64,000 bases of DNA from an uncultured Lentimicrobiaceae bacterium (GTDB lineage Bacteria > Bacteroidota > Bacteroidia > Bacteroidales > F082): contig CAZJUQ010000054.1 of NCBI GenBank assembly GCA_964549335.1, positions 53,663-117,662 on the forward strand, given 5' to 3'. This document shows positions 2,725-20,832 of the stretch, one piece after another (within the stretch, counting starts at the first letter, position 1; every line of letters begins with the position of its first letter). Made by a program: the position numbers and the translations under genes. The notes beneath the pieces are model-generated. The model did not search any database and had not been told where the DNA came from. It saw only the letters and a program-made list of their open reading frames with translations.

Positions 2725-2729
2725 TACAT

Positions 2730-2774
2730 TAAAAGAGAAAAAAGCCTGCAATAAATTATAATTGTTGCAGGCTT
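2730..2774 (-). terminator. rho-independent terminator of the DUF5320 gene
   Basis: AAGCCTGCAA (2742-2751) pairs with TTGCAGGCTT (2765-2774): 10-bp perfect stem. On the minus strand it is followed by TTTTTCTCTTTT and starts 5 nt after the stop codon. Confidence 0.7.
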
Positions 2775-2778
2775 AATG

Positions 2779-3000: not shown

Positions 3001-3024
3001 AACAACAATTTTTTAATTATTTTA

Positions 3025-3032
3025 CAAAAATA
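3025..3032 (-). promoter_or_regulatory. candidate -7 box (TAnnTTTG)
   Basis: Minus strand TATTTTTG, 24 nt upstream of ATG 3000. Confidence 0.45.
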
Positions 3033-3147
3033 GACATTATGAACATATGTTCGTTTAAATTTTAATATTTTTTTGTAACATTTTGCAACGCAAAAACGTC
3101 ATACCGGCAAACGAAACGAGAAGAGATAAAATTAAAAACAAAAAATC

Positions 3148-4734: not shown

Positions 4735-4743
4735 ATTTTCCGG

Positions 4744-6645
4744 TTATAAAATTGTTTTGCTAACCTTTCTCCTTGTATCTTCAATGGCGGTATCGGTACC
4801 GAAAACGTGTAAAATATCGCCGAGTTGAAAAACAGTTTCGCCGTGAGGGATGTAATATGTCTCACGGCGTTTTATCATCATCAGTATGGCATCTTGATGA
4901 AAATGAATATCTTTTACGTGCAAACCGTCAATTTTTACATTTTCCACAGGAATCTCTTCAACACTGAAATTTTCGAACGACTCGATAAGCTGGTGGTATG
5001 TTGTGGGACGGTAAATAAGATTTTCGTAGGTGGTTGCCAAAATACGCCTTACATCCACCGTTTCGACATTAAGTATTTTCAGACGCTTTTCAATTTTTAA
5101 CGAATCGGCACGCGAAATGATATTTTCATGCCCCAAACCGTTTCGCAAAAGTTTGCTTATTGCAATGTTTTGTTCGTCGTTTCCTGTATCCACCACAACA
5201 TATTCGCGGGGTTTCAGGTTTAATTTTTTATAAACGGAGGCATCAAGTCCGTCGCCCAATACACAAACGATACCCTTTTTCAATATCTCTTTGTAACGTT
5301 TTTCGTCTTTTTCGAGAATAACAGCCCTCTTCCCGTGCAAATTCAATTTGCGTACAAGCAACACTCCCGTACTACTCCCTCCTATTATCAATGTTTTCAC
5401 CCCTTTTATTTTATCATCGGGAAAAACGGCATTGAAAATAACGGGCGACAAAAAACAGGTTATTATGGCCATAATGATAAAAGAGGAATTTATTCCCGGG
5501 GTAATCACTCCGAGGTCGAGACCAATGGCAGAGGCGGCAATTATCAAACTTAACCTCGACGACATGAGGAACCCTGCGGCAAGCGATTTTTTTGTGCCGA
5601 ATTTTCTTTTCCAGAAAAACGAAGGAGCAATCTTTATCAAAAACATAAAAACAAGCAATAGCAATAAAAACAACAGCAACGAGTTGTCGAACTCAAGTAA
5701 TGCTCCCGGGTCGAACTCAACGCCCACCATTATGAAAAACACGGGAATAAAAAAGCCGTATCCCATGCCGTCAAGTTTTATCATTAATGCCGACCGTTCT
5801 TTATGCAACAGGGTCGACATTATCAAGCCGCTTAAAAATGCACCGAGCAATATTACCTCTTCGCCTATATACTGCGATATAACCACAAAAATCAAAATAA
5901 GAACTATAACCCCCCGTATTCTTATTTGCGAAACGGCATGCGAAAGTTGAAATGCAAATTTTTTAAAAAGAGGTATTCTCTTTATCCTGTTTCCGGCATT
6001 GTAAAAAAGAAGAAAAACCAAAAACAATCCTATTATGTATAACAGTTCCCACTTAAATCCGAATTTGATGGTGTATGCCGTGAAAGTAAACAAAAGAATA
6101 CTGAAAATATCGGCAATTGCCGCCGCCAAAATAATGGCTTGCCCGAAACGTGTCGACAACTCGCCCCTGCTTTTCAAAATGGGCAATACAATACCTACCG
6201 ATGTGGTTACCATTATCAACGAAAAATACCACAAATGGGGAATATCGATAATAAATGATAACAAAAGCGTTGAGACATATGATATTAACAACGCAAATAC
6301 AAAATGCAATATGCCCGTTACCAGTGAATTGTCGAGCAATTTTACCTTCCCTCTGTTCCGCTTGGGAAACGATGAAACTATTTGGTCAACATCAATCTCC
6401 AAACCGCTTAAAAACATAAGGAATACAAAACCCGACAAAGCCAAAAATTCAAGTATATGAAAACTGTCGGTATTGTGCGACTTGAAAAAAAGAACACCTA
6501 TAAGGTAACCTGAAATTATTTCAACAATTACCGAAGGTATTTTGCGTAAATTGAATACAGACAATAGCAACGGAACTGTCCACGCTACCAGCATAACTAT
6601 CAACAAGGGCAAAAAATCGAAATGAAAAGAGATATTTATCAACAT
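4744..6645 (-). CDS. cation:proton antiporter (Kef/CPA2-like) with TrkA-N and TrkA-C regulatory domains
   Basis: ~400 aa of multi-pass membrane sequence, then a Rossmann segment TLIIGGSSTGVLLVRKLNLHGKRAVILEKD and a C-terminal TrkA-C-like segment. The ORF track starts at a TTG (6684); the first ATG is at 6645. Confidence 0.85.
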   Translation of the reverse strand: MLINISFHFDFLPLLIVMLVAWTVPLLLSVFNLRKIPSVIVEIISGYLIGVLFFKSHNTDSFHILEFLALSGFVFLMFLSGLEIDVDQIVSSFPKRNRGKVKLLDNSLVTGILHFVFALLISYVSTLLLSFIIDIPHLWYFSLIMVTTSVGIVLPILKSRGELSTRFGQAIILAAAIADIFSILLFTFTAYTIKFGFKWELLYIIGLFLVFLLFYNAGNRIKRIPLFKKFAFQLSHAVSQIRIRGVIVLILIFVVISQYIGEEVILLGAFLSGLIMSTLLHKERSALMIKLDGMGYGFFIPVFFIMVGVEFDPGALLEFDNSLLLFLLLLLVFMFLIKIAPSFFWKRKFGTKKSLAAGFLMSSRLSLIIAASAIGLDLGVITPGINSSFIIMAIITCFLSPVIFNAVFPDDKIKGVKTLIIGGSSTGVLLVRKLNLHGKRAVILEKDEKRYKEILKKGIVCVLGDGLDASVYKKLNLKPREYVVVDTGNDEQNIAISKLLRNGLGHENIISRADSLKIEKRLKILNVETVDVRRILATTYENLIYRPTTYHQLIESFENFSVEEIPVENVKIDGLHVKDIHFHQDAILMMIKRRETYYIPHGETVFQLGDILHVFGTDTAIEDTRRKVSKTIL

Positions 6646-6772
6646 ATACAGTACTGTTTTTCCGTTAGTACAAAGAAACAACAAATAACATTACATTCGT
6701 GATACCGTTTACCGCTTCCCCATTTTTCAAGGCAATTCGCTCATATTGTGTTGTATCCATTAATTAATTATT

Positions 6773-6780
6773 TATCTTTG
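6773..6780 (+). promoter_or_regulatory. candidate -7 box (TAnnTTTG)
   Basis: TATCTTTG, 46 nt upstream of ATG 6827. Confidence 0.45.
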
Positions 6781-6826
6781 TAACAAAAAAAGAAGAATTT
6801 TTTAATTAATTAAATCACAATGCGTT

Positions 6827-7111
6827 ATGGATAAAAACAACAAACTTTTGAAGTGGACACTTATTTTGCTGACCATCGGAGTATGGATATTGGTTTTTCA
6901 AAATGCCGGCATTTTTCCCAGAATGTCACCCCAAATTGTTGCCGTTGACAGTGCTTTATTGATAAAAGGCGAAGTGGACGTTAACAATACGGTTTTTGTC
7001 AAAGGTTCTGTTGACGCCAATATCGAAAGCATAAACGGATACAGTAAATTTTACAAAGACCCGAGAACAGGAGAATTTTACGTTTTACCCGTAACCGACC
7101 CTTATCAATAA
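6827..7111 (+). CDS. hypothetical small membrane-anchored protein
   Basis: One N-terminal TM helix (WTLILLTIGVWILVFQNAGIF). -7 box upstream; 22 nt before the TPR/LuxR gene. No family recognised. Confidence 0.55.
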   Translation: MDKNNKLLKWTLILLTIGVWILVFQNAGIFPRMSPQIVAVDSALLIKGEVDVNNTVFVKGSVDANIESINGYSKFYKDPRTGEFYVLPVTDPYQ

Positions 7112-7133
7112 ATCAAAACAAGAATAACCGGCG

Positions 7134-8906
7134 ATGAGAGTTTATTTCTGGGGACTTATATTATTGTTTTTCATTATCCGAAATGTAACATTTTCTCAAA
7201 CCGCTGTTATCACAACTTCTATAAGCGACACTACCGGACAAAACAGTGCCGAAATTTTATATAAAAAAGCCGTCTCGTTCTTTCCGTACGATATAGAACG
7301 TACTTTGCATTTTAACAAGCTCGCCCTCAAAATGGTTAACCCCAAAACCGAACCATTGCTTAATGCCAACATTAACAAGTTAATGGGCGACATATTCGAA
7401 AAGAAAAACAGCATTCAACCGGCAATAAATTATTATCTTATCAGTGCCAAAATATTCAAAAGGATTAACAATGCCGGCAATTTGTGCCGTGTTTATGAAC
7501 GGCTCGGCAAAATGTATTACCGCGACAACTACAATTTGAAAAACGCACTCGATTACTACTACAAAGCCCTGGAAATTGCCACCTCGTTAAACGATAACTC
7601 TTTGATTGCCGAAATATACAACAACATAGGAGGTATTCTGTTTAACCAAAACAACATAGACGAAGCATACGAATATTTTAAAAAAGCTCTTAAACTGTGG
7701 AAAAACGAAAACAACATCATGGGAACGGCAAGGGCATTCAATAACATCGGCGAAATTTTCAGAAAACGTAAAATGTTCGACAAAGCGGAAGAGTATTACA
7801 ACAAAAGCCTTTCGATAAACAAAAAACATAACAACATCACATTTATGGCCGTCAATTTTCAAAATCTCGGAATTTTAAAATCGGAGACGGGAAAACATGA
7901 CGAAGCACTTAACTATTTTTTGAAAAGCATTGAGCTGTACAAAAACCAAAGCGATGAAAATAACGTGCTTAAAGTAATGTTGTTGTTGGGCAAAGAGTAC
8001 GATATTCTTAAAAACCACAAAAAAGCTTATGAAATTTTAAACAACGTTTATCAAATTGCCAAAAAAAACAACAATTGGGATTTAATAGCCTCGTCGGCCA
8101 AAGGATTAAGCAACGTTTTGGAGCATTGGGGCAATTCGGGCAAAGCATTGAAATATTATAAAATCTACTCGGAATTTAACGATTCGATAAATTTTAAAAA
8201 ACAAAACAAACTGCTCGAAGACCTGCAGATGCGTTTTATTAACGACATCAAAGAGAAAGAGCTGTCGTTAAAAGACAAAGAGATAGCACTTCTGAAAAGC
8301 GACAAGAAAGTCCGCCAATTGCAAAATTCAATACTTATTGCCGGATTTTTTGTTCTTATTATAATTTCGGTACTGCTTATTTCGCGTTACAAATCGCAAT
8401 TTCAAAAAGAGCGTCTGTTAAGTATTAAAAACGCTGAACTGCATAAAGCCCAACAAGAACTTATGGAACTGGAAATAAAAAGCAAAAACAACGATTTGGC
8501 AAATTTCGCACTGCATATTGTTGAAAAAAATAACTTTTTGCGCGAAATACGCAAACAGCTGAAAGAGCTTAACAAATATCCCGAAAATGTCAAGGACAAA
8601 AAAATTAACGAGCTAATAATAACCGTACAACAAAATTTACAAATACAGGAAGAGTTAAAGGAGTTCCGTTATAAAGTGGACCAAACATATCAAGGATTTT
8701 TCGAACGGTTAAAAACAAAACTCCCCACAATAACAAAAAACGAAGAACGGTTATGTGCCCTTTTGCGCCTTAACCTTTCGTCGAAAGAGATTGCGGCTTT
8801 GAACAACACATCGGTAAAAGCCGTTGAAATGAGCCGTTACCGGTTGCGTAAAAAATGTAAAATAGCAAACGACGAAAACCTGTGCGATTATCTTGAAAAA
8901 ATTTAA
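7134..8906 (+). CDS. membrane-anchored TPR-repeat regulator with C-terminal LuxR-type HTH
   Basis: Signal/anchor N-terminus; multiple TPR-like repeats (AxxYYxKAL...); internal TM (ILIAGFFVLIIISVLLISRY); coiled coil. C-terminus LTKNEERLCALLRLNLSSKEIAALNNTSVKAVEMSRYRLRKK is a LuxR/GerE HTH. Confidence 0.8.
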   Translation: MRVYFWGLILLFFIIRNVTFSQTAVITTSISDTTGQNSAEILYKKAVSFFPYDIERTLHFNKLALKMVNPKTEPLLNANINKLMGDIFEKKNSIQPAINYYLISAKIFKRINNAGNLCRVYERLGKMYYRDNYNLKNALDYYYKALEIATSLNDNSLIAEIYNNIGGILFNQNNIDEAYEYFKKALKLWKNENNIMGTARAFNNIGEIFRKRKMFDKAEEYYNKSLSINKKHNNITFMAVNFQNLGILKSETGKHDEALNYFLKSIELYKNQSDENNVLKVMLLLGKEYDILKNHKKAYEILNNVYQIAKKNNNWDLIASSAKGLSNVLEHWGNSGKALKYYKIYSEFNDSINFKKQNKLLEDLQMRFINDIKEKELSLKDKEIALLKSDKKVRQLQNSILIAGFFVLIIISVLLISRYKSQFQKERLLSIKNAELHKAQQELMELEIKSKNNDLANFALHIVEKNNFLREIRKQLKELNKYPENVKDKKINELIITVQQNLQIQEELKEFRYKVDQTYQGFFERLKTKLPTITKNEERLCALLRLNLSSKEIAALNNTSVKAVEMSRYRLRKKCKIANDENLCDYLEKI

Positions 8907-8915
8907 TACGCTTTT

Positions 8916-9030
8916 TGTAGAATGACAACACACGCTATTTGCCTGTCCGGCAAGTTTTTATATTTTTTTGTGTAGAAGTGCGTTTCCGGTTTTGAGGGCA
9001 ACCAAAAAGGGTTGTAGAAAGCGTGTAGAG
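8916..9030 (+). repeat. four direct TGTAGA(A/G) copies in the regulator/sigma-factor intergenic region
   Basis: TGTAGAA at 8916, 8971 and 9013; TGTAGAG at 9024. The last two are 11 nt apart. Confidence 0.5.
8938..8970 (+). terminator. weak hairpin plus T-tract after the TPR/LuxR gene
   Basis: TTGCC-TGTCC-GGCAA (5-bp stem) followed by GTTTTTATATTTTTTT. Confidence 0.4.
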
Positions 9031-9062
9031 GTATTTTTTACACTTTTATCGTTTCATAACAT

Positions 9063-9070
9063 TACTTTTG
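9063..9070 (+). promoter_or_regulatory. candidate -7 box (TAnnTTTG)
   Basis: TACTTTTG, 44 nt upstream of ATG 9115. Confidence 0.45.
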
Positions 9071-9114
9071 AACCGTCGAATGATTAATATTTCATTTTTC
9101 ATAAAATTAAAAAA

Positions 9115-9696
9115 ATGAAAAGCAATTCCACGGAAGAGAAAGAAATAATATCCCGATGTATCAGCGGGGAACGGAAAGCACAATTTGAACTTTACCGTAT
9201 ATACTCCCCGAAAATGTATGGAATTTGCATGCGATACGCAAAAAACAAAACCGATGCCGAAGACATTTTACAAGAAGGATTCATTAAAGTTTTCAGATAT
9301 TTGAAAGATTACCGTGGCGAAGGTGCATTCGAAGGCTGGATACGCAGAATAATGATTACCACATCGCTCAACTTCTATAAAAAGAAAAACCTCGTTAATA
9401 AAGATGTGGACCCGGAAACCATAAGACTCCGGGGACTGTCGCATCCCGACGCAGTATCAAAAATGGCTCACGAAGAGTTGCTTTCATTAATTCAGGAGTT
9501 GCCTAACGGTTACAGGACGGTATTTAACCTGAACACCATCGAAGGATATTCGCATAAAGAGATTAGCGAAATACTCCAAATTTCGATAAACACATCAAAA
9601 TCACAACTATCGCGTGCCAAGTCGTCGTTAAAAGATAAAATTTCCAAAATGTTTTTACTGGAAAATGACGAGGTTAAACTTGCCTCGGTATTTTAA
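9115..9696 (+). CDS. ECF-type RNA polymerase sigma-70 family factor
   Basis: Region 2 (FELYRIYSPKMYGICMRYAKNKTDAEDILQEGFIKVF) and region 4 (GYSHKEISEILQISINTSKSQLSRAK) signatures; 193 aa. Confidence 0.9.
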   Translation: MKSNSTEEKEIISRCISGERKAQFELYRIYSPKMYGICMRYAKNKTDAEDILQEGFIKVFRYLKDYRGEGAFEGWIRRIMITTSLNFYKKKNLVNKDVDPETIRLRGLSHPDAVSKMAHEELLSLIQELPNGYRTVFNLNTIEGYSHKEISEILQISINTSKSQLSRAKSSLKDKISKMFLLENDEVKLASVF

Positions 9697-9761
9697 ATAT
9701 TACCCGGCGCATATTACATTCATTATTTATTTTAAATTTGTGGCTTTTTAAACCGTTAAGT

Positions 9762-11030
9762 ATGGAAAATTCTGTATCGAACAAAAAGAGTGATTATCTA
9801 ATGCCGATAATTATTATTGGGGTTTTGTTTTTTATATTCGGGTTTGTTACATGGCTTAATGCAACACTGATACCCTATTTAAAGACTGCCTGTGAACTAA
9901 CGACGTTTGAATCGTATCTTGTAACTTTTGCATTTTACATCTCATATTTTGTAATGTCGCTTCCTTCATCGAAAGTTTTGGAAAAGACAGGTTTTAAAAA
10001 CGGCATGGCGCTCGGGCTTGTGGTAATGGCAATAGGAGCGTTAATATTTATTCCCGCGGCATTAACCCGTACGTACTCGTGGTTTTTGGGCGGTTTGTTC
10101 GTACAGGGAACCGGATTGGCGCTTTTACAAACGGCGTCAAACCCTTACGTAACGATATTGGGACCAATCGAGAGTGCCGCAAAACGTATCAGCATTATGG
10201 GAGTTGCCAACAAGTTTGCCGGCATTCTAAGTCCTATTATTCTCGGTTCCATTGTATTGTCGGGCATTAACGAACTAAAAGAGAAACTTCCCGGAATGAC
10301 CGATGCCGCCCGCGAAGCTGCACTCGGTCAACTTTCACAAAAGGTTATCCTTCCCTATGTTGTTATGGCAATTGTTTTGGTACTTATGGCCGTTGCCGTC
10401 AGGTTTTCGACACTGCCCGAGGTGGAAGCCGAAGAAGAAGAGGGTAATGACGAGCCTGCCAAATCAAGCATTTTCGGTTTTCCATATTTTTGGTTGGGGG
10501 TTATCACACTATTCTTTTACCTTGGCGCCGAAGTTGTTTCCGTTGACACATTAATTAATTACGGGCTTTCGCTCGGGTTCGACATCAATCATGCTAAGTT
10601 TTTCTCCTCGTTTACCCTTATTGCAATGATTGTGGGGTATTTGGTAGGGATAATCACCATACCCAAATACATATCGCAACAAAATGCACTTAAATATTTT
10701 GCGGTTTTGGGATTTCTGTTTACGGCCGTTGCAGTTTTCACAACAGGTTATACATCGGTACTCTTTATTGCCGCACTCGGATTTGCCAACTCCATTATGT
10801 GGCCTGCCATATGGCCTTTGGCAATAGGAGGATTGGGAAAACATACCAAACTGGGCTCCGCATTTATGATTATGGCCATTGCGGGAGGAGCCACCATTCC
10901 ACTGTTGTACGGATATCTGGCCGATTTACCCTCTATAGGAAGCACAATGGCATATGCCATACTTCTGCCTTGCTATCTGATAATATTCTTTTTTGCCACC
11001 AAGGGTTATAAAGTGGGGAGAAAAATTTAA
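9762..11030 (+). CDS. MFS sugar transporter, FucP/GluP (fucose or glucose/galactose:H+ symporter) family
   Basis: FFIFGFVTWLNATLIPYLKTACELT...YFVMSLPSSKVLEKTGFKNGM matches the FHS-family N-terminus; 12 TM-like segments. The ORF track starts at a TTG (9738); the first ATG is at 9762. Confidence 0.85.
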   Translation: MENSVSNKKSDYLMPIIIIGVLFFIFGFVTWLNATLIPYLKTACELTTFESYLVTFAFYISYFVMSLPSSKVLEKTGFKNGMALGLVVMAIGALIFIPAALTRTYSWFLGGLFVQGTGLALLQTASNPYVTILGPIESAAKRISIMGVANKFAGILSPIILGSIVLSGINELKEKLPGMTDAAREAALGQLSQKVILPYVVMAIVLVLMAVAVRFSTLPEVEAEEEEGNDEPAKSSIFGFPYFWLGVITLFFYLGAEVVSVDTLINYGLSLGFDINHAKFFSSFTLIAMIVGYLVGIITIPKYISQQNALKYFAVLGFLFTAVAVFTTGYTSVLFIAALGFANSIMWPAIWPLAIGGLGKHTKLGSAFMIMAIAGGATIPLLYGYLADLPSIGSTMAYAILLPCYLIIFFFATKGYKVGRKI

Positions 11031-12406
11031 AACGCTTTACCTGTTAACTCTTCGGGATTAAAAGGAACGAAATTCATGATGTCTTCGTGCAAGTCGTCCG
11101 CCATGCCACTGTACGAAACATTGGTTGACAGCGCCCATGTTGCTGCCTCCGTATTTTTGGTAGCCCGCAAAGTTTCAATAAATTTCCGCATTATCGTCTT
11201 TTTCCCGTACAAAACTTTCCACGTTTCCAACATCTCTTGATATAGTTCTTTTCGTGTCATTTTTGCCGGTTTAAAAGTAACATCCTCAACACTGTAATAT
11301 TCCCAGTCAGCCGGATAGTCGTTTTTTATTATCCTGTTTGCCTCCTTAAACTCTTCGAATATTTTTGTTCCGGGCATAGGAGTTAATATTCCCAATTGAT
11401 AGGCATCGATATTACTGTTCAGGATATACTCCCTCCTGTCGATGATATCCTGTTTCGTATCGGTATCCAAGCCGAAAATAAAGGAGCCGAGAACAGCTAT
11501 TCCGGCTTTATGAATTTTATCAAAAGCCTCACGGTAATAATCGGTGCCAAGGTTTGCATTTAGTCTTTTGTTAATACTTTTAAGGGCATTTATTTTTTCC
11601 GACTCTATGCCTATAAAAACCAATTTACAACCACTTTGAGCGGCAAGCGACAACAGTTCTTCGTCGTCGGCAAAGTTTATCGAAGCCTGGCTCCACCACG
11701 ATTTTTTTATCCCCCTGTCAATCATTCCTCTAAAAATTGCCTTTGCATGTTCCTTTGATTGCTTGGAATAACCGATAATATTGTCGTCTATAAAAAAGAG
11801 TTTTTTTTGCGGCACCATTTCAATATTGTCCAAAACCGCTTCCACGGGACGCATGCGGTATCTCTTTCCGTTAAATATCGTTACCGTACAAAAATCGCAA
11901 TTAAAAGGGCAACCGCGCGTGGTAAAAACCGAACCCACTTCGTAATTGTCATTAAAAATATCGTATCTCGGCAACGGCATACGGTCAAGAGGTAATTTTT
12001 CGCCGTAATATATATGTTTCAGATTTCCGTTTTCAAAATCTTTCAAAAGTGAGGGCCAAACGCTTTCGCCTTCGCCAACAACCACCGTATCAACATATTT
12101 CAATGCTTCTTGCGGCAACATTGAGGCATGAATCCCTCCCATAACAACGGGAATCTTCTTTTTACGGTATTCGCCCGCAATTTTGTAAGCACGGTTTGCC
12201 GATGATGTATATGCCGTAATACCTACCAAATCGGCTTCTCTAAAACTGAAATCGTCGAAATTTTCATCAACAAGTTCAATTTCATAACTGCCGGGGGTTA
12301 AAGCCGACAAAATACCGTAAACCAAAGGTACATATTTGGTGTTTTTATTTCTGACAAAACCTTTTCGCAGTTTGGAAACGGGATTGATAAATACTATTTT
12401 TTTCAT
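11027..12406 (-). CDS. B12-binding-domain radical SAM protein (paralog 3 of 3)
   Basis: N-terminal B12-binding-like Rossmann segment (VGITAYTSSANRAYKIAGEYRKKKIPVVMGGIHAS), then TTRGCPFNCDFCTV (CxxxCxxC). ATGA overlap with paralog 2. Confidence 0.85.
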   Translation of the reverse strand: MKKIVFINPVSKLRKGFVRNKNTKYVPLVYGILSALTPGSYEIELVDENFDDFSFREADLVGITAYTSSANRAYKIAGEYRKKKIPVVMGGIHASMLPQEALKYVDTVVVGEGESVWPSLLKDFENGNLKHIYYGEKLPLDRMPLPRYDIFNDNYEVGSVFTTRGCPFNCDFCTVTIFNGKRYRMRPVEAVLDNIEMVPQKKLFFIDDNIIGYSKQSKEHAKAIFRGMIDRGIKKSWWSQASINFADDEELLSLAAQSGCKLVFIGIESEKINALKSINKRLNANLGTDYYREAFDKIHKAGIAVLGSFIFGLDTDTKQDIIDRREYILNSNIDAYQLGILTPMPGTKIFEEFKEANRIIKNDYPADWEYYSVEDVTFKPAKMTRKELYQEMLETWKVLYGKKTIMRKFIETLRATKNTEAATWALSTNVSYSGMADDLHEDIMNFVPFNPEELTGKAF

Positions 12407-13797
12407 GCTAACTTTTTGTCAAAGACACCGCCGAAAGGTACGGTAGTTGCAATGATTTCGGGGTCGAAAAAATATCCGGTACCTTCAAAAATGGTATTAG
12501 CATAATTTGCATTCGTATAAAGTGTCCACATTGCCGTTCTGGCATCTTTTGTCTCTTTGAGGGTCATTTTAAACTTTTGCAAAAGGTTTTTGGGGTCGTA
12601 AATTCTACCCCAAGCCGTTCTTAATTCCTCGGTCAACTCTTCGTGGGTCATTTTTGCAGGTTTAATAACGTTTTCAAAAAACCTGAAACGTTGCCAATCT
12701 TTGGGAAAATCGGTATAATGGATACGGTTTTCTTTTAAAAACTTGTAATAGGTGCCTGTCCCCGGAAAAGGGGTTAACACCGTGGTTTGAAAAGCATCCA
12801 CATTTGAATTGATAATAAAATCGGCGCGGTTTTGCAAATCCTGTTTACTGTCGGTATCAAGACCGAAAATAAAGGTGCCGAGAACAGCTATTCCGTAATC
12901 GTGAATTTTACGGAAAATGTCGTTATAGTTTTGCACACCCACTTTCTGATTAAGGTCTTTTTTTGTCTCTTCGAGGGCTTCAATTTTTTCCGACTCGACA
13001 CCTATCAACACCATTTTACATCCTGTTTCGTGCGCCAGTTCCAGTATTTCGTCATTATCGGCAAAATTTATTGATGCCTGGGTAAACCACTCCTTTTTTA
13101 TTCCTCTCTCTTTCATTCCTCTTAACAACTCTATTGTTCTTTGCATGGAACGTTTACTGTAACCAATCAAATTATCGTCAACAAAAAAGAGATTCGGTTT
13201 GGTGGTTTTTTCCAACTCGTCAAGGATATCGTTTACGGGACGTTGACGGTATGCCGTACCGTTAAAGGCATGCACGGTACAAAAATCGCAACGCCAAGGA
13301 CATCCCCTTGTGGTTTGAATGGTATCGAAGGCATATTTCGGGTGAAAAAGGTCGTGACGGGCATGAACCAACTTGTCAGCTTTTAATCTTACCCCGTTAT
13401 ATCTTTTTTTAAGATTATTGTTTTCGAAATCCTTTAATACGGTTTGCCAAACACTTTCGGCTTCACCGGCAACAACCACGTCAACATATTTTTCAGCCTC
13501 TTCGGGAATCATCGAAGCATGAATGCCACCCATAACCACCGGCACATTTTGTTTGCGGTAAATTTCGGCTATCTGATATGCACGGTAAGCATTTCCCGTA
13601 AAAGCTGTCAGCCCAACAAAATCGGCTTCTTTATATTCAAAATCGTCAAAGTTTTCATCAAAAATCTCAACTTCCCAATTGTCGGGTGTCAATGTCGCCA
13701 AAATACCGAGACCAAGCGGCGGGTAATTGGAAAACTCGTAGTTCAGCAAACCTGTTTTTAAATAGTTGCGAGGATTAATTAACAGTAACTTTTTCAT
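12403..13797 (-). CDS. B12-binding-domain radical SAM protein (paralog 2 of 3)
   Basis: VGLTAFTGNAYRAYQIAEIYRKQNVPVVMGGIHAS and TTRGCPWRCDFCTV. Collinear with both neighbours along the full length. Confidence 0.85.
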   Translation of the reverse strand: MKKLLLINPRNYLKTGLLNYEFSNYPPLGLGILATLTPDNWEVEIFDENFDDFEYKEADFVGLTAFTGNAYRAYQIAEIYRKQNVPVVMGGIHASMIPEEAEKYVDVVVAGEAESVWQTVLKDFENNNLKKRYNGVRLKADKLVHARHDLFHPKYAFDTIQTTRGCPWRCDFCTVHAFNGTAYRQRPVNDILDELEKTTKPNLFFVDDNLIGYSKRSMQRTIELLRGMKERGIKKEWFTQASINFADNDEILELAHETGCKMVLIGVESEKIEALEETKKDLNQKVGVQNYNDIFRKIHDYGIAVLGTFIFGLDTDSKQDLQNRADFIINSNVDAFQTTVLTPFPGTGTYYKFLKENRIHYTDFPKDWQRFRFFENVIKPAKMTHEELTEELRTAWGRIYDPKNLLQKFKMTLKETKDARTAMWTLYTNANYANTIFEGTGYFFDPEIIATTVPFGGVFDKKLA

Positions 13798-13804
13798 TTG
13801 CTAT

Positions 13805-15178
13805 CTATATTGATTTTTTAAATACTTCATCCAATTTTATATGCTTTTTCAGGTCTGTTTCGAAAGCCATATTATGGTAATGGACATTTGCCGAAAAAGC
13901 CCACAATGCCGTTTTAGGGTCTTTTGTAACCTTCAATGTACGTAACATCAACTGCATAAGCCTTTTGCTGTCGTATATCTTTTCCGCCGCTTCGGTAACA
14001 ACCTCTTTCAGTTTCCGGGCAGTCATGTTCTTAGGTTTAATAACGATATCGCCACCCCAGTAGTTTTCCCAGTCGGCGGGATAACCGGTTGCGGTAAGCC
14101 TCCCCTCTTTTAGAAAATCGTCATAAGTTTTTGTGCCGGGGAAAGGTGTTAATATGGATATTTGAACCGCATCGATATTTGAGTTTAAAATATATTCCGT
14201 ACGGTTTTTAATATCTTGAACGGTATCGGTATCGAGCCCCATAATAAAGGTACCCAAAACACTGATTCCGTGTTTTTGAATAACAGAAAATATTTTTTGA
14301 TAATTATCAACTCCTGCTTTTAAATTCGAACGTTTGTTCATACTTTGCAAGGCGTCGGTTTTTTCCGATTCGACACCGATAAGTACCAAACGGCAACCGG
14401 CTTTGTAAGCCAAATCGAGCAACTCCTCATCTTCGCCGAAATTTATGGAAGCCTGACAAAACCACTCCTTGTTTATCCCCATATCTATCATTCCTTTAAA
14501 AATAGCCTTTGCATGGTCTCTTGCCGGCTTGTTGTATCCCACAATATTGTCGTCGACAAAGAAAAAACGTTCGGCATTCATAACTTTCAATTCATAAAGG
14601 ACATCATCAACCGGACGCATGCGGTACGCCTTGCCGTTAAACACGGGAACCGAACAAAATTCGCAGTTCATCGGACAACCGCGTGTGGTTTGTATTGAGT
14701 CTATTACATACTCTTTGTTGAAAAGGTCGTGGCGGGCAACGGGCATCTTATCCAAAGATATTAATCCGCCGGAATAGCGTTTTTTCAATATTCCCGACTC
14801 AAAATCGGAGATTATATTTTTCCATGTGGCTTCGGCTTCGCCAATGGCAACAACATCCACATATTTTTCGGCTTCGTCGGGCAGCATCGATGCATGGATA
14901 CCGCCCATCACCACGGGAATTTTTTTATCGCGATATGCCAATGCTATTTCGTATGCCCTCTTTGCCGTTGATGTAAAAGCGGTTATCCCTACAATATCGG
15001 CATCTTCGTAAACAAAATCCTCAAAATTCTCATCAATGAGTTTTACCTCCCAATCATCCGGTGTTAACGCGGCTACTATTCCAAGACCGAGAGGCGGATA
15101 CCTCGACTCCTTATCAATAAGAAAACCAATGCGATGACGACTACGCGGATTTATTAACAAAAGTTTTTTCTTAGACAT
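13805..15178 (-). CDS. B12-binding-domain radical SAM protein (paralog 1 of 3)
   Basis: VGITAFTSTAKRAYEIALAYRDKKIPVVMGGIHAS and TTRGCPMNCEFCSV. The ORF track starts at a TTG (15202); ATG 15178 gives MSKKKLLLINPR, matching the paralog N-termini. Confidence 0.85.
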   Translation of the reverse strand: MSKKKLLLINPRSRHRIGFLIDKESRYPPLGLGIVAALTPDDWEVKLIDENFEDFVYEDADIVGITAFTSTAKRAYEIALAYRDKKIPVVMGGIHASMLPDEAEKYVDVVAIGEAEATWKNIISDFESGILKKRYSGGLISLDKMPVARHDLFNKEYVIDSIQTTRGCPMNCEFCSVPVFNGKAYRMRPVDDVLYELKVMNAERFFFVDDNIVGYNKPARDHAKAIFKGMIDMGINKEWFCQASINFGEDEELLDLAYKAGCRLVLIGVESEKTDALQSMNKRSNLKAGVDNYQKIFSVIQKHGISVLGTFIMGLDTDTVQDIKNRTEYILNSNIDAVQISILTPFPGTKTYDDFLKEGRLTATGYPADWENYWGGDIVIKPKNMTARKLKEVVTEAAEKIYDSKRLMQLMLRTLKVTKDPKTALWAFSANVHYHNMAFETDLKKHIKLDEVFKKSI

Positions 15179-15252
15179 ACAACCCTTTTCCAAAGGCTGC
15201 AAAGATATTAATATATGTTAAAAGGTTAAATGTTTTGTGAAAATTATCAATT

Positions 15253-15260
15253 CAAACATA
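15253..15260 (-). promoter_or_regulatory. candidate -7 box (TAnnTTTG) for the triple radical SAM operon
   Basis: Minus strand TATGTTTG, 74 nt upstream of ATG 15178. Confidence 0.4.
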
Positions 15261-15363
15261 TTAAAACACGAAAAACCTTTAACGTCATACTAAAGCCGTA
15301 ACAATAAGTGCCGTTTTCCCGCATTATCTCCGTTTCAAATTAAGAGCGAACTGAAAAATAGAT

Positions 15364-15371
15364 TAGTTTTG
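15364..15371 (+). promoter_or_regulatory. candidate -7 box (TAnnTTTG) for the ACP-GT2-GNAT operon
   Basis: TAGTTTTG, 18 nt upstream of ATG 15390. Confidence 0.45.
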
Positions 15372-15389
15372 TGCTCAAAAAAATCAGAG

Positions 15390-15650
15390 ATGAATATTGA
15401 AGAATTTATTAAAAAGATAGAAGCCGAATTTCCCGATTTGCAAAAAGGAGTCCTGAAACCTGAAACAAGGTTTCGCGACGAAGTCGAGTGGGATTCGATA
15501 AATGCACTGGTTATTATTGCCATGATAAACATAGAATACGATGTAACCATTACGGCCGAAGAGCTTATTAACGCCGAAACCGTTCAGGATGTTTACGATA
15601 TTGTTGAAAAGAAGGTTCTGGAAAACAAGGAAAAAGAAACTGACGCATAA
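15390..15650 (+). CDS. acyl/peptidyl carrier protein-like (phosphopantetheine attachment) protein
   Basis: 86 aa. EVEWDSINALVIIAMI contains the DS(L/I) Ser attachment motif in the expected helix-2 position. The ORF track starts at a TTG (15369). Confidence 0.7.
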   Translation: MNIEEFIKKIEAEFPDLQKGVLKPETRFRDEVEWDSINALVIIAMINIEYDVTITAEELINAETVQDVYDIVEKKVLENKEKETDA

Positions 15651-15664
15651 AAAAACATACCGTC

Positions 15665-16582
15665 GTGGTCGATTATTCAGTTGTAATACCGGTTTTTAAC
15701 AGCGAAAACACCTTGGAGGAAATCCATGAAAGGACATTAAAGGTTTTTGAGCAACTGGACAAAAGTGTGCAATTTGTTTTTGTTGACGACGGCAGTCTCG
15801 ACACAAGTTGGGATGTACTTTTAAAGATAAAAGATAAAAATCGGGACAACGTAACAATAATCAGGTTAAACAAAAATTACGGTCAGCACAATGCAACATT
15901 TTGCGGCATACAGCACGCAAAAGGCGAAACCATTATTACCATGGACGACGATTTGCAACATCCTCCCGAAGAGATAACAAAGTTGATAGCACGAAGAGAG
16001 GAGCGGAAAAGCGAACTCGTTTACGGTTTTTTCAACAAAAAAAAGCATTCGATGTACCGCAATTTGGGCAGCCGATTGGTAAGAAAAACGGCGGAACGGT
16101 TTCTCGACCGTCCCGAGCAGGTTTCATCGTTCAGGCTTATCAGCAGAACCGTTACCGAAAAAATTTTGCAGCATAACAGAAATTTTATCTTTATTGACGA
16201 ACTTCTGTGGTGGTACACCGACGAAATTGACTTTGCCTACGTTGAACATCACAAAAGAAAATACAAAAAATCGGGTTACACTTACGGCGCACTTTGGAAG
16301 TTTATGACCAATATGATGATATATTATACCAACTTCCCGTTGCGTCTTATGGTATATACCGGACTTCTTTTCTCGGTTTTCTTTTTTGCCGTTACAATAT
16401 ATTATCTGCTTGCCAAAATATTTTATGATGTGCCGCTCGGTTATACCTCAATAATAGTAAGCATATTGTTTTCGACCAGTTTGATACTTTTCAGCCTCGG
16501 TGTCATTGGCGAATATATCAGCAGACTATACACTTTTCAAAACCAAAAACCCCCCTTTATCATCAAAGAGATTAAAGAATGA
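15665..16582 (+). CDS. family 2 glycosyltransferase, GtrB/ArnC-like polyprenyl-phosphate glycosyltransferase
   Basis: YSVVIPVFNSE...FVFVDDGSLDTS...NYGQHNATFCGIQHAKGETIITMDDDLQHPPEE plus two C-terminal TM helices. GTG start. Confidence 0.85.
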   Translation: MVDYSVVIPVFNSENTLEEIHERTLKVFEQLDKSVQFVFVDDGSLDTSWDVLLKIKDKNRDNVTIIRLNKNYGQHNATFCGIQHAKGETIITMDDDLQHPPEEITKLIARREERKSELVYGFFNKKKHSMYRNLGSRLVRKTAERFLDRPEQVSSFRLISRTVTEKILQHNRNFIFIDELLWWYTDEIDFAYVEHHKRKYKKSGYTYGALWKFMTNMMIYYTNFPLRLMVYTGLLFSVFFFAVTIYYLLAKIFYDVPLGYTSIIVSILFSTSLILFSLGVIGEYISRLYTFQNQKPPFIIKEIKE

Positions 16583-17256
16583 AGGTAGAAACAAACGGTA
16601 TAATGATAGAGCGCCTCCAAGAAAAAGATATTGAACTGGTAAGAGAATGGCGCAATTCGGATTACATTCGCAATTTTATGAACTTCAGGGAATATATTAC
16701 TCCCGAAATGCAAAAAAAATGGTTCGAAAGCATAAACAACTTTAACAATTTTTATTTTATCATCCACTACAAGGGTAAAAAAGTAGGTTTGGGAAACATT
16801 AAAAACGTTAATTGGGAAGAGCGTTCGGGCGAAGCAGGTGTGTTTGTCGTCGACAAAAACTTACTGGGATCGTTTTTACCCGTTGTGGGAGCATTAACCA
16901 TGAGTTCTCTCGTCTTCGATATCTTCGATTTCCATAAACTGTATGCCCAAATCAGAGTGGATAATAAACGGGCAAAAAAGTTCAACCGTGTATTCGGCTA
17001 CAAAATGTTGCCCGGCGAAGAGAATAAAGAGAGTCAAATGCACATTTTATCAAAAGAGGATTTTTACAAAAGCACGAAAAAGTTCTTTATTTTGATGAAG
17101 ACAATGGGGTTCAGCACAAAAAACCTTAAAATAGTAATAGAACCCGTCGATTTTGAAACCGATTTTGCAGAACGCATTATTAAACTCATAGAACAATCGC
17201 CCTTACTTTTCGACGTAAAAAGAACGGGAAACGAGATTATTTACACCGAGGTATAA
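16579..17256 (+). CDS. GNAT family N-acetyltransferase, PseH-like
   Basis: IERLQEKDIELVREWRNSDYIRNFM resembles the WRN motif of PseH-type amino-sugar acetyltransferases. ATGA overlap with the GT2 stop. Confidence 0.7.
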   Translation: MKVETNGIMIERLQEKDIELVREWRNSDYIRNFMNFREYITPEMQKKWFESINNFNNFYFIIHYKGKKVGLGNIKNVNWEERSGEAGVFVVDKNLLGSFLPVVGALTMSSLVFDIFDFHKLYAQIRVDNKRAKKFNRVFGYKMLPGEENKESQMHILSKEDFYKSTKKFFILMKTMGFSTKNLKIVIEPVDFETDFAERIIKLIEQSPLLFDVKRTGNEIIYTEV

Positions 17257-17260
17257 ACCG

Positions 17261-18073
17261 TTACCATACCAATCCGCTCATGTAACCCACAACCCTGCCC
17301 GTGTCGTTTGAAACATCGGCGCTTGTGCGATAGTCAAGCAATGCGGTATTATAGCCATTGTCCGATGCCACCTTTGTAAGGGCTTTTAATCCCGTTATAC
17401 CGCAAGCCTCACAACCTTCGCCGTACATCTTCACATCCTTTTTTTCAAACGCCTTTATGCATATGGCATCCAACCACCGGGCGGTAGCCTCTGTATGAAA
17501 ATGACTCAAATCGCTGCTTATTACCACCGCACAATTATCATTACGTAACACCTCCGAAATTATTTCCGCAACCAGATTCATGCCGGCATCACCGTATATC
17601 AACTCTACAATGCGGGCTTGCCCGTTATAATGCGCAATAAAGGGCATTTGAGTTTCGGTACTGTGCTCTTTGTAATGCGCCTCCTTATTAAAAACAAATG
17701 CAAACTTCCCGTGTAATGTTTCCAGCATATCGGTAGCGGTTTTAAGTATCCCTTGCGGTGTCTCGTAATATTCGGTAAATGCTGCACTTACCCCCTTAAA
17801 ATAGACATGGTGACTGGGACCTATTACGACGATACACTGCGGTTTTGAGTTTGCTAATGCTTTGTGTGCCGCATTTGCCGTAAATCCGCTGTAAACATAT
17901 CCTGCATGAGGCGAAATTACGGCACGCGGTTTCTTGTTCATGTAAGAGTATCCTTTTACCAAGGGCAAATTTTTATTAAAAACCTCTATAAGCCTGTCAA
18001 TTTCGACACGCGATGACGGATAAAACATGCCGCTGTTTCCGGCTTTACGGTATTTTTCAAATATCAGTTCCAT
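17261..18073 (-). CDS. AmmeMemoRadiSam system protein B (MEMO1 family)
   Basis: AGNSGMFYPSS and ISPHAGYVYSG motifs typical of MEMO. Start chosen at the second ATG (MELIFEKY), leaving a 10-nt overlap with the radical SAM gene. Confidence 0.85.
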   Translation of the reverse strand: MELIFEKYRKAGNSGMFYPSSRVEIDRLIEVFNKNLPLVKGYSYMNKKPRAVISPHAGYVYSGFTANAAHKALANSKPQCIVVIGPSHHVYFKGVSAAFTEYYETPQGILKTATDMLETLHGKFAFVFNKEAHYKEHSTETQMPFIAHYNGQARIVELIYGDAGMNLVAEIISEVLRNDNCAVVISSDLSHFHTEATARWLDAICIKAFEKKDVKMYGEGCEACGITGLKALTKVASDNGYNTALLDYRTSADVSNDTGRVVGYMSGLVW

Positions 18074-19050
18074 ACTCCGTCGATTTTTGTACCACAATAT
18101 TTGCATTTTCCGTCAACCAAACTGTTTTTCGAGATATAATATCCCCTTCTGACTATCAACTCTTTTCCGCAACCCGGACAAGTTGTTATTGCCGGCTCTG
18201 AAACATTTCCTTTATAAACATATTTCAACCCCCTTTTCTTACCGGTTTCGTAAGCTCTTTGTAAAGATTGCAAACTCGTATGGTTTTTATCCGTCATTTT
18301 GTAATGGGGATAAAAAGCCGAAATATGCCAAGGGGTACTATTTCCAAGCTCGCCGGCAATAAATCCGGCAATGTCGTCCAACTGCGAACCGCCATCGTTT
18401 TCGCCTGGCACAACAAGTGTTGTAACCTCTATCCAGAAACCGTTTTTTCTCAACAATTTCAAAGTGTCAAGCACCCCTTCAAGAGTTCCTTTCAAGGTTT
18501 TTTTATAATATGCGGCATCAAAACTTTTCAGGTCAACATTAAAAGCGTCTATTATCCCCATCATGTCATTAATAACCTCTTCTGACTCCATTCCGTTGGT
18601 AACAAAGACGTTTTTTATCCCTTTTGATTTTGCCAATAGAGCCGTATCGCGGGCAAAAGGATAAAACACCGAGGGCTCGTTATAAGTATATGCTATTGTT
18701 TTACAGTTGTTTTTTAGGGCAAGAGCAACAATTTGTGCGGGAGTAACCTCTTGGGAGAAAGAGAGGTCGCCGGTTTGCGAAATTTGCCAGTTTTGACAAA
18801 ACGGACATTGCAAATTACATCCCACAGTACCAATGGAGAGTGCGGTGGAACCGGGCAAAAAATGGTACAACGGCTTTTTTTCCACAGGATCGATATTCAG
18901 GGCTGCCACTTTACCGTAAACCAAATTCTCAAGTGCGCCCTTTTCGTTTTTATTAACACCGCAAATGCCGGTTTGCCCCTCCTTCAAATTGCAATAATGG
19001 CGGCAAAGCAGACACCTTATCCCTTTTGATGTTTGTTGATAATATGTCAT
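18064..19050 (-). CDS. AmmeMemoRadiSam system radical SAM enzyme
   Basis: N-terminal Cys cluster (CLLCRHYCNL...CGV) then GCNLQCPFCQNWQIS, and C-terminal CPGCG...CKYCG. Sits between the AMMECR1 and MEMO genes. Confidence 0.9.
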   Translation of the reverse strand: MTYYQQTSKGIRCLLCRHYCNLKEGQTGICGVNKNEKGALENLVYGKVAALNIDPVEKKPLYHFLPGSTALSIGTVGCNLQCPFCQNWQISQTGDLSFSQEVTPAQIVALALKNNCKTIAYTYNEPSVFYPFARDTALLAKSKGIKNVFVTNGMESEEVINDMMGIIDAFNVDLKSFDAAYYKKTLKGTLEGVLDTLKLLRKNGFWIEVTTLVVPGENDGGSQLDDIAGFIAGELGNSTPWHISAFYPHYKMTDKNHTSLQSLQRAYETGKKRGLKYVYKGNVSEPAITTCPGCGKELIVRRGYYISKNSLVDGKCKYCGTKIDGVWN

Positions 19051-19610
19051 CTCTCCTCCTCAAAAATTTCAACTTCGAAACGGTAAATACCGGGGTGACT
19101 GTATATGCAGTCGCCCTCAAGTCCCGCTTTAAGACAAAGATGATAAAAGAACACATCGAAAGAGGGTAACTTGTCCCAAACCTGAGGCAAAAACACTGCC
19201 CTTCTGAATCCTTTCGATAGTATTATGCCGTCTTTCCCGGGGACAAGAAGACCTTTAAGTTCGTCAACACTGCTATAAATAACCTCTTCCGGTTTCGACA
19301 AAAGCGAAATTTCTATGGAGATATCCTCCATTTCATCCGGTTCCACCGGTTGGAACCTGCTGTCGCTGAATGCCGCCGCACGGGCATTGTGAATTATATC
19401 GTCCAACAACATGCGGTGTGCTTCAATACTTCCTATACAGCCGCGCAATTGTCCCTCTTTGTTGAGGGTAACAAAAACGGCACCGGGTTCGGCAAGACGT
19501 GGATATCGCCCTGTCAAATACTCCTTGTCTATCAGTTTTGCGCCTGTCAGCTTTTCCATTATCGCCTTCCGCGCAACATCAAGCATCGCTTTTTTTAACG
19601 AATCTTCCAT
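19047..19610 (-). CDS. AmmeMemoRadiSam system protein A (AMMECR1 family)
   Basis: GAVFVTLNKEGQLRGCIGS motif. ATGA overlap with the radical SAM gene. The ORF track starts at a TTG (19646); the first ATG is at 19610. Confidence 0.85.
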   Translation of the reverse strand: MEDSLKKAMLDVARKAIMEKLTGAKLIDKEYLTGRYPRLAEPGAVFVTLNKEGQLRGCIGSIEAHRMLLDDIIHNARAAAFSDSRFQPVEPDEMEDISIEISLLSKPEEVIYSSVDELKGLLVPGKDGIILSKGFRRAVFLPQVWDKLPSFDVFFYHLCLKAGLEGDCIYSHPGIYRFEVEIFEEER

Positions 19611-19658
19611 CGATTTTCCCCTCTTTTTTAAAAAGGCAAACTTCAAATTTTATACCAA

Positions 19659-20776: not shown

Positions 20777-20824
20777 AGTCGTGCTTTTTGTTTTACTAAG
20801 GTCTATTAAATAACTTTTGTTTTT

Positions 20825-20832
20825 CAAAAATA
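20825..20832 (-). promoter_or_regulatory. candidate -7 box (TAnnTTTG)
   Basis: Minus strand TATTTTTG, 48 nt upstream of ATG 20776. Confidence 0.45.

Follow-up and report, generated by a model that had tools for sequence, protein, structure and literature searches.

Tandem B12-binding radical SAM genes beside a dedicated acyl carrier protein gene in a putative amino-sugar cluster of Bacteroidota

Introduction

Why would an uncultured Lentimicrobiaceae bacterium (Bacteroidota) keep three paralogous B12-binding radical S-adenosylmethionine (SAM) genes head to tail in one operon, and what could the enzymes act on? The genes, here named rsA, rsB and rsC, lie in a 64,000-nucleotide stretch of contig CAZJUQ010000054.1 (assembly GCA_964549335.1, positions 53,663 to 117,662); the whole of this 64-kilobase (kb) stretch is called the window below. 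A preliminary description of the locus had proposed that they are class B, cobalamin-dependent enzymes that modify a single substrate iteratively or successively, as in polytheonamide, hopanoid or bacteriochlorophyll chemistry. In the generic class B mechanism, SAM is cleaved by a reduced [4Fe-4S] cluster, and the resulting 5'-deoxyadenosyl radical abstracts a hydrogen atom from an sp3 carbon; methylcobalamin gives a methyl group to the substrate radical, and a second SAM remethylates cob(I)alamin. The enzymes of this class that have been characterised belong chiefly to antibiotic, cofactor, hopanoid and archaeal-lipid pathways, and we know of no substrate for most of its members. Tandem paralogs abound, as do class B enzymes that have not been characterised. 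Our analysis ties the radical SAM (rSAM) clade, in Bacteroidota of anoxic sediments and bioreactors, to a dedicated acyl carrier protein (ACP), a GT2 glycosyltransferase and a GNAT N-acyltransferase, within a pathway resembling the Arn and enterobacterial common antigen (ECA) amino-sugar pathways. The enzyme architecture is known; the clade and its pathway wiring are undescribed, and our literature search found no description of the rSAM-ACP/GT2/GNAT cluster. We are far surer of this linkage than of which substrate is used and what chemistry is performed on it.

Results

The three paralogs occupy a tight operon on the minus strand. The first gene, rsA (positions 13805–15178), encodes a B12-binding and radical SAM protein of 457 amino acids (aa) from the ATG at 15178; an alternative TTG start at 15202 would give 465 aa (open reading frame (ORF) 13805–15202 in the ORF listing). 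The second, rsB (12403–13797, 464 aa), begins 7 nucleotides (nt) past the rsA stop, and the third, rsC (11027–12406, 459 aa), overlaps the end of rsB. Reading the junctions directly gave a TAG stop, the 7 nt ATAGCAA and the ATG of rsB at the first, and a shared start/stop ATGA at the second; together with the ORF listing this confirms the layout first reported, of three ~460-aa paralogs separated by a 7-nt gap and then an ATGA overlap. We read the genes as co-transcribed, with translational coupling probable. In pairwise BLASTP comparisons the proteins share 52–55% identity over ~435 residues (E <= 5e-175), a sequence similarity far beyond chance; the earlier estimate, made by eye, was of well over half of the residues. 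The conserved motifs named at that time are all present in the alignment: MKK(L/I)(L/V)(L/F)INP, PVVMGGIHASM.P.EA.KYVD.V and TTRGCPxxC(D/E)FC(T/S)V. The last of these is the CxxxCxxC cluster motif, with C166, C170 and C173 invariant in the paralogs and in 33 homologs. The exact rsB protein also occurs on a 131-kb contig of the metagenome-assembled genome (MAG) GCA_054029295.1, in a Joint Genome Institute (JGI) metagenome contig and in a Logan contig, with identical gene order.

The divergent intergenic region between the rSAM operon and the ACP operon (15179–15389) carries two Bacteroidetes-type -7 boxes of the form TAnnTTTG. One, at 15207 on the minus strand, faces rsA and favours the ATG at 15178 as its start; the other, at 15364 on the plus strand, faces the ACP gene and supports the ATG at 15390. 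The divergent arrangement is kept in relatives. A scan for sigma-70 promoters and terminators returned the same counts as shuffled sequence, the method being uninformative for Bacteroidota. No Rfam family reached its gathering score in the window, hence no cobalamin riboswitch was found. Apart from a 71-aa ORF that runs antisense to the ACP gene, the intergenic region contains two ORFs only, 23 and 25 aa long.

All three proteins belong to the class B-type radical SAM superfamily by domain content, motif and fold. They match the Pfam B12-binding family (PF02310) at 46–54 bits against a cut-off of 32.1 (54.3 for rsA) and Radical_SAM (PF04055) at 54–57 bits against 29.5 (55 for rsA). The AlphaFold2 model of rsB (mean predicted local distance difference test, pLDDT, 90.3; predicted template modelling score, pTM, 0.89) matched the folds of AprD4, MgmA, CysS, TsrM, OxsB and TokK with probability 1.00 and template modelling (TM) scores of 0.59–0.70, and a sequence profile search of the PDB returned only AprD4 (E 2e-15), MgmA, TokK, TsrM and CysS. 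These domain matches, with 73 columns invariant across 33 family members and all 73 kept in rsA, rsB and rsC, bear out the class assignment of the preliminary description. Cobalamin use and methyl transfer are putative activities of the proteins.

Placement in a characterised family was rejected, as the NCBIfam, PDB sequence and fold searches all gave matches at the level of the superfamily only. No NCBIfam model was matched at its curated cut-off; the partial matches reached ~60–112 bits against cut-offs of 251–750 and fell mostly on the radical SAM core, the best being to HpnJ, BchE, HpnR, PhpK, ApyD, TIGR04013, the ladderane model and AprD4. HpnJ (TIGR03471), HpnR (TIGR04367), BchE (TIGR02026) and PhpK (TIGR04479) scored at best 73–112 bits against 481–650, the AprD4 family (NF033070) 62–70 against 500, and the ladderane-associated lipid B12 rSAM model (TIGR04072) 73–87 against 360. 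Among class B methylases of peptides that are made ribosomally and modified post-translationally (RiPPs), ApyD (NF050148) scored 69–94 against 750 and TIGR03975 18–26 against 282. For rsA and rsB the top partial match was HpnJ, at 111.9 and 89.9 bits. No characterised clade with a known substrate was thus found to contain the paralogs, all NCBIfam equivalogs lying far below cut-off. Since no such cut-off was reached and no solved structure is close, we regard them as an uncharacterised class B clade. It is a large one, with more than 6,500 database clusters matching at E <= 1e-20, and the source labels of these homologs read only 'B12-binding domain-containing radical SAM protein' or COG1032/YgiQ.

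The association of this clade with the ACP cluster was followed from two directions. A scan anchored on the rSAM genes, taking one genome per GTDB species, gave 79 loci (numbered with the prefix L here), in which ORFs were called and clustered and representatives annotated. In 25 of the 28 informative Bacteroidota loci, one to five tandem rSAM copies adjoin the ACP gene and/or other cluster genes. The rSAM genes (one to five in tandem) stand directly beside a small ACP gene, mostly divergently, in 21 of the Bacteroidota loci; they stand beside a FAAL-ACP fusion instead in L018 and L054, and beside other cluster genes in L060 and L014. The three exceptions (L067, L069 and L073) are all singletons. 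Most of these loci carry the full cluster, in the order GNAT-GT2-SDR-KASIII-ACP and divergent from a variable number of rSAM genes, and one or two sulfotransferase genes, a Wzx-type flippase gene and a FAAL-ACP gene lie near it; L045, a MAG labelled Draconibacterium orientale, combines the whole cluster with four to five rSAM copies. A minimal form, ACP-GT2-GNAT divergent from two to four rSAM genes, is found in the window and in its nearest relatives, L004, L007, L008, L011 and L038. The rSAM-ACP-GT2-GNAT arrangement of the window is that of L004, L011, L038 and L090, and the extended form occurs in more than 30 loci. The ACP gene stays adjacent to the rSAM genes despite rearrangement, and the two are interleaved in L050, L065, L109 and L111. 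The preliminary description had asked whether the triplet is conserved together with the divergent ACP/GT2/GNAT operon, and across many Bacteroidota loci the tandem genes are.

The second scan was anchored on GNAT, with 16 GNAT homologs aligned and metagenome contigs searched, and yielded 80 loci chosen independently of the rSAM genes. A locus counted as informative if its sequence reached 3 kb or more upstream of the ACP gene; of the 22 that did, 14 had rSAM genes, divergent from the ACP gene, and 8 had none. Copy number in the 14 was one in six loci, two in four, three in two and four in two. The core ACP-(FAAL)-KASIII-SDR-GT2-GNAT is highly conserved in the GNAT-anchored loci; L094 consists of ACP-GT2-GNAT alone, and L090 resembles the window in having three rSAM genes and neither KASIII nor SDR. 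The presence of rSAM genes in 14 of 22 loci and their absence from 8 indicate that the module, though often present, is facultative and varies in copy number. The number three is incidental: copy number ranges from 0 to 5 in relatives.

The triplication itself is old. In a neighbour-joining (NJ) tree of 127 family members, rsA, rsB and rsC fall in three separate orthogroups, which are common to the related Bacteroidota MAGs L004, L005, L007, L008, L010, L011, L012 and L038. In orthogroup A, rsA shares 63–80% identity with the first tandem copy in L004, L005, L011, L012, L085 and L090. Identity in orthogroup B is 65–83% between rsB and its counterparts in L004, L007, L008, L010, L011, L038, L090 and L093, and in orthogroup C 57–69% between rsC and those in L004, L005, L007, L008, L010, L011, L038 and L090. 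Paralogs within a genome share ~50–55%, below the 57–83% between orthologs, and this difference (paralogs at ~53%) indicates that the duplication is old and that the copies were retained. The order A-B-C is common to the window, L004 and L011; elsewhere it is A-A'-C, B-C, C-B-C or A-C-B. The copies have stayed under constraint, with gains and losses from one lineage to another, a pattern that functional specialisation would fit better than recent dosage amplification.

In the window, the partner operon reads away from the rSAM genes on the plus strand. It opens with the dedicated ACP (15390–15650, 86 aa; Pfam PP-binding 29.6 bits, cut-off 20.8), whose phosphopantetheine serine, in the motif W-x-S-I-N-A-L, is shared by 90% or more of 53 homologs. 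The GT2 gene follows (15665–16582; Pfam Glycos_transf_2, 96 bits) and encodes a putative polyprenyl-phosphate glycosyltransferase of ArnC/GtrB/PgfS type with a hydrophobic C-terminal part. It aligns over its full length with NF007986, the model of ArnC (undecaprenyl-phosphate 4-deoxy-4-formamido-L-arabinose transferase) (protein residues 4–303 against profile positions 8–311 of 316; E 1e-45) at 155.9 bits, under the cut-off of 529, and likewise over its full length with PgfS, under the equivalog cut-off. It resembles ArnC in predicted function but is not an ArnC equivalog. The GNAT gene (16579–17256), which overlaps the GT2 gene by 4 nt, encodes an N-acyltransferase with a PseH/RimJ-like core (Pfam Acetyltransf_4/3) and a C-terminal extension of ~80 aa; it scores 62.8 bits against PseH (TIGR03585), under the cut-off of 93.1. 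Its homologs in a set of 5.8 billion proteins carry generic 'GNAT/RimJ family' labels only. Viewed by eye, the GNAT alignment lacks, at about residues 85–115, a conserved copy of the glycine-rich pyrophosphate-binding loop (Q/R-x-x-G-x-G/A) that is typical of GNATs using acyl-CoA, which might fit an acyl donor other than coenzyme A (CoA), such as acyl-ACP.

The product of the cluster can be approached through its partner genes in relatives. In 23 loci a DegT-family aminotransferase gene is part of the cluster or close to it, and in the closest GNAT relatives, L086–L089, it directly follows GNAT; the order in L011 is DegT-GNAT-GT2-ACP divergent from four rSAM genes. The DegT protein of L087 scores above the curated cut-offs of two models (NF008687, 504.7 against 375; TIGR02379, 446.7 against 434.85), which stand for dTDP-4-amino-4,6-dideoxygalactose transaminase and the WecE subfamily. 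Genes for dTDP-glucose 4,6-dehydratase (RmlB) flank the cluster in L010 and L090. DltB-like MBOAT genes recur in 14 loci and PMT_2/TMTC-DUF1736/TPR GT-C genes in 10, and Wzx and sulfotransferases are further recurrent members. In the Arn and ECA pathways, ArnB or WecE is the transaminase, ArnA or WecD performs N-acylation, ArnC loads undecaprenyl phosphate, and a GT-C enzyme such as ArnT acts as well. The activities encoded in the cluster match this set, which suggests an N-acylated 4-amino-6-deoxyhexose on polyprenyl phosphate that is then passed to an envelope acceptor. By this analogy, the probable product of the cluster is an N-acylated amino sugar that is assembled on a lipid carrier and destined for the cell envelope. 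The dedicated ACP, together with KASIII, SDR and FAAL in relatives, suggests that the acyl group would be built or carried as an ACP thioester.

A variant of the cluster that lacks rSAM genes, in L165 and L166, runs GT-C/TPR, KASIII, ACP, KASIII, SDR, GT2 and GNAT and then a gene for an OlsC/LpxO-like iron/2-oxoglutarate-dependent (Fe/2OG) acyl-chain hydroxylase (L165 10693–11463; L166 4419–5189; NF052565 109 bits, under cut-off). The position of this gene after GNAT suggests that tailoring in the cluster targets the acyl chain, and the hydroxylase may be the oxygen-dependent counterpart of the rSAM module.

Family members also occur in other settings. In L072 (Desulfobacterales, 232–17110), two of them and three distant B12 rSAM genes are interleaved with a GT2 gene, two genes for GT-C/TPR proteins of TMTC-like type, one further radical SAM gene and the gene of an ABC_tran_2 protein. 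On the 4.6-megabase (Mb) Bacteroidota contig of L083 (10001–12452), a gene for a CarboxypepD_reg/Plug outer-membrane protein is followed by a singleton rSAM gene and, directly after it, a sulfotransferase gene; similar proteins of 807–825 aa are encoded near rSAM genes in L045, L051, L061 and L065. Two MAGs of Syntrophomonadaceae (L046, 136–5657; L039, 9986–14593) have three adjacent family members and no ACP, GT2 or GNAT gene, with a gene for Lgt (prolipoprotein diacylglyceryl transferase) between the rSAM copies in L046. Rhodopirellula sallentina SM41 (L037) has a singleton.

On the far side of the rSAM operon, a gene for a NagP/GluP-like MFS sugar transporter (9738–11030, plus strand) is convergent with rsC, and their 3' ends overlap by 4 nt (11027–11030), leaving no space for a terminator. 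The MFS gene, an extracytoplasmic function (ECF) sigma factor gene (9115–9696) and the gene of a 590-aa TPR protein (7134–8906) are syntenic in L004. Beyond the partner operon, an AmmeMemoRadiSam trio (17261–19646, minus strand) abuts the GNAT gene convergently. It is complete, and all its scores are above cut-off (protein B, TIGR04336, 211.7 bits; radical SAM protein, TIGR04337, 350.6; protein A, TIGR04335, 197.1). A functional link of this trio to the cluster was rejected: the trio is not beside the cluster in L004 or other relatives, and the adjacency looks coincidental. A 355-aa ORF further along (19760–20827) has no NCBIfam match, and the proteins of the window include type IX secretion system (T9SS) sorting domains and a Bacteroidetes-type sigma factor, by which the organism belongs to Bacteroidota.

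Discussion

We favour, tentatively and with slightly less than even confidence, the reading that the rSAM genes serve the ACP/GT2/GNAT cluster as an accessory module for tailoring, the likeliest chemistry being successive C-methylation of an ACP-borne acyl group. A dTDP-4-amino-4,6-dideoxyhexose-type amino sugar, its aminotransferase encoded inside the operon in relatives, would be N-acylated by the GNAT protein with an acyl group carried on the dedicated ACP. The ArnC-like GT2 would place the N-acyl sugar on polyprenyl phosphate for export, and the final transfer would fall to a TMTC-like GT-C of the kind present in relatives. Each rSAM paralog would perform one radical step on an intermediate, at different positions or successively; the likeliest step would be methylcobalamin-dependent C-methylation at unactivated carbons of the ACP-tethered acyl group, the sugar being a less likely target. 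The sequences themselves establish which domains the paralogs have, that all three are intact, how old they are and in what order they stand, and that their linkage to the cluster is conserved; cobalamin use, methyl transfer, the identity of the substrate and the successive action are what we infer here. An acyl-ACP target is favoured by the persistent adjacency of ACP and rSAM genes, by the structural kinship with CysS and TokK, whose substrates are pantetheinyl-tethered, by the hydroxylase in the rSAM-less L165 and L166, and by the precedent that a B12 rSAM gene beside a specialised ACP marks lipid tailoring (PMC13459092).

Several observations weigh against this reading. Sequence alone does not reveal cobalamin binding, and AprD4, which matches best in structure, is a diol dehydratase and not a methylase. 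Homologs at 45–50% identity occur in Anaerolineae, Planctomycetota, Spirochaetota, Deltaproteobacteria and Firmicutes, mostly as singletons, in non-conserved contexts without ACP, GT2 or GNAT and in some cases beside MarR or LytTR regulators. Family members lie without an ACP in an operon with Wzx and a sulfotransferase in L014, paired with a sulfotransferase only in L083 (a singleton), next to GNAT and a sulfotransferase in L115, and with GT2 and GT-C in L072. The 64-kb window itself encodes neither an aminotransferase nor a KASIII, SDR or FAAL that could load the ACP, and within it no homolog of sulfotransferase, Wzx, GT-C/TPR, DegT or RmlB was found.

A sugar or glycan substrate would account just as well for these ACP-less patterns, and that is the first alternative to be weighed: the rSAM enzymes would act on the sugar or the lipid-linked glycan and not on acyl-ACP, for example by C-methylation, deoxygenation or ring rearrangement before or after GT2 loads polyprenyl phosphate. 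Such chemistry has precedents in GenK, GenD1, MoeK5 and AprD4, and in HpnJ, which acts after the GT2 enzyme HpnI. The top fold match, AprD4, is bound to the amino sugar paromamine (TM 0.70), and HpnJ gave the best NCBIfam partial matches of rsA and rsB. The pairings in L014, L083 and L115, and the interleaving of family members with GT2 and TMTC-like GT-C in L072 without an ACP, point the same way. The similarity to AprD4 and HpnJ, however, is at superfamily level only (18% identity; 62–112 bits against 500–578), and the constant neighbour in Bacteroidota is the ACP or the FAAL-ACP fusion, not GT2, GNAT or DegT. We consider a sugar or glycan substrate unlikely on this balance.

A further alternative separates the enzymes from the cluster altogether. 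The family might have a function unrelated to ACP, GT2 and GNAT, for instance on a general membrane lipid or some other substrate common in cells, with the triplication a lineage-specific paralog expansion near envelope genes. The 45–50% singletons, which occur in seven or more other phylum-level groups with no conserved context and in some cases by MarR or LytTR genes, are consistent with this, as are the Lgt gene between the copies in a Syntrophomonadaceae locus, the nesting of singleton clades among Bacteroidota paralog clades in the NJ tree and the 8 of 22 GNAT-anchored clusters that have no rSAM gene at all. Against it, the divergent ACP-rSAM arrangement recurs in more than 30 independent loci, down to a GNAT identity of ~36%, and survives rearrangements, and the Bacteroidota exceptions are singletons only. 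An unrelated function is, in our judgement, decidedly unlikely. Unrelated contexts had been named at the outset as a sign of simple paralog expansion; they were found for singletons of the wider family in other phyla and not for the Bacteroidota triplet.

A role for the paralogs as RiPP maturases like those of polytheonamide or bottromycin, or like ApyD, methylating a ribosomal precursor peptide, is scarcely credible: bottromycin biosynthesis does employ three paralogous class B methylases, and there are partial matches to ApyD (69–94 bits) and to the RiPP C-methyltransferase subfamily TIGR03975 (18–26 bits), but these lie far under the cut-offs of 750 and 282, the conserved partners are ACP, sugar and lipid enzymes, and no conserved small ORF, protease, RiPP recognition element (RRE) protein or peptide exporter was found either in the window or across more than 100 related loci, the 23-, 25- and 71-aa ORFs of the window not having been checked for conservation.

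Acyl-ACP tailoring within the cluster thus remains the reading we prefer, and the initial interpretation is partly supported: it was reasonable, and over-specific in its chemistry and analogies. Neither the membership tests nor the gene context support the polytheonamide, hopanoid and bacteriochlorophyll comparisons. Its statement that no substrate is obvious has been narrowed by the conserved neighbour, a dedicated ACP in an amino-sugar/polyprenyl-phosphate glycosylation cluster. The linkage yields a testable candidate substrate, acyl-ACP or an N-acyl amino sugar, and natural variants with 0–5 copies for comparison. If acyl-ACP or a lipid-linked sugar is methylated, this would be a new substrate class for B12-radical chemistry and could be the reason why surface glycans of anaerobes carry unusual branched N-acyl groups or sugars; otherwise the locus would represent ordinary paralog expansion within a very large enzyme superfamily.

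The proposal can be sharpened into a more specific and more doubtful form, in which the clade adds methyl branches or other C-C bonds, one paralog per position, to the acyl chain on ACP that becomes the N-acyl group of a polyprenyl-phosphate-linked 4-amino-6-deoxyhexose. If true, this would amount to oxygen-independent diversification of a surface glycoconjugate in anaerobic Bacteroidota, with paralog number (0–5) setting the degree of branching, and would make the module the anaerobic counterpart of the OlsC/LpxO-type hydroxylase in the rSAM-less clusters. Within envelope (primary) metabolism, the tailoring of acyl-ACP by a cobalamin-dependent radical SAM enzyme would also be a first.

Comparison with known systems

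Among solved enzymes, AprD4 (PDB 6fd2), the 1,2-diol dehydratase of apramycin biosynthesis, is the best match in sequence (E 2e-15) and fold (TM 0.70–0.72); it is of similar length and acts on an amino sugar. It differs in sharing 18% identity, in being a dehydratase and in serving an aminoglycoside pathway. CysS and TokK/ThnK share both fold and two-domain architecture with the paralogs (Foldseek E 2e-19 to 5e-16; query-normalised TM 0.64–0.67). CysS and TokK have been crystallised with pantetheinylated substrates, to which they add methyl groups successively, and the conserved neighbour here is a dedicated ACP. The identity is 14–17%, CysS and TokK are ~200 residues longer, and each is one iterative enzyme of an antibiotic cluster, whereas one to five diverged paralogs of predicted activity stand in a sugar and envelope cluster here.

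Several diverged paralogs per genome or cluster, with copy number varying between lineages, are also seen for GrsA/GrsB, the Gmm paralogs, BchQ/BchR and BotRMT1–3, whose substrates are isoprenoid tetraethers, chlorins and peptides, unlike those considered here. Methanomada have two to three Gmm homologs (PMC11214058). In the hopanoid pathway, which also has the methylases HpnP and HpnR, HpnI (GT2) and HpnJ (class B rSAM) offer the parallel of an amino sugar that is attached to a lipid and then remodelled; the cut-offs (578–650 bits) are missed, however, no hopanoid genes are present, and the GT2 here is ArnC/GtrB-like. Ladderane-type clusters (TIGR04072) likewise place an uncharacterised B12 rSAM gene beside a specialised ACP and fatty-acid enzymes, and the same ACP-beside-B12-rSAM heuristic was used to nominate ladderane genes (PMC13459092). 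The present host is not an anammox bacterium, and the present cluster contains sugar enzymes.

The Arn and ECA Fuc4NAc pathways give the comparison for the cluster as a whole. Neither has radical SAM genes, the GT2 and GNAT of the window are under the equivalog cut-offs, and the ACP, with KASIII, SDR and FAAL in relatives, suggests an ACP-thioester donor in place of formyl-tetrahydrofolate or acetyl-CoA. What the cluster and its relatives have in common with them is a GNAT N-acyltransferase and an ArnC-like GT2, joined in relatives by a WecE-type transaminase (above the curated cut-offs in L087) and by a GT-C and a flippase nearby.

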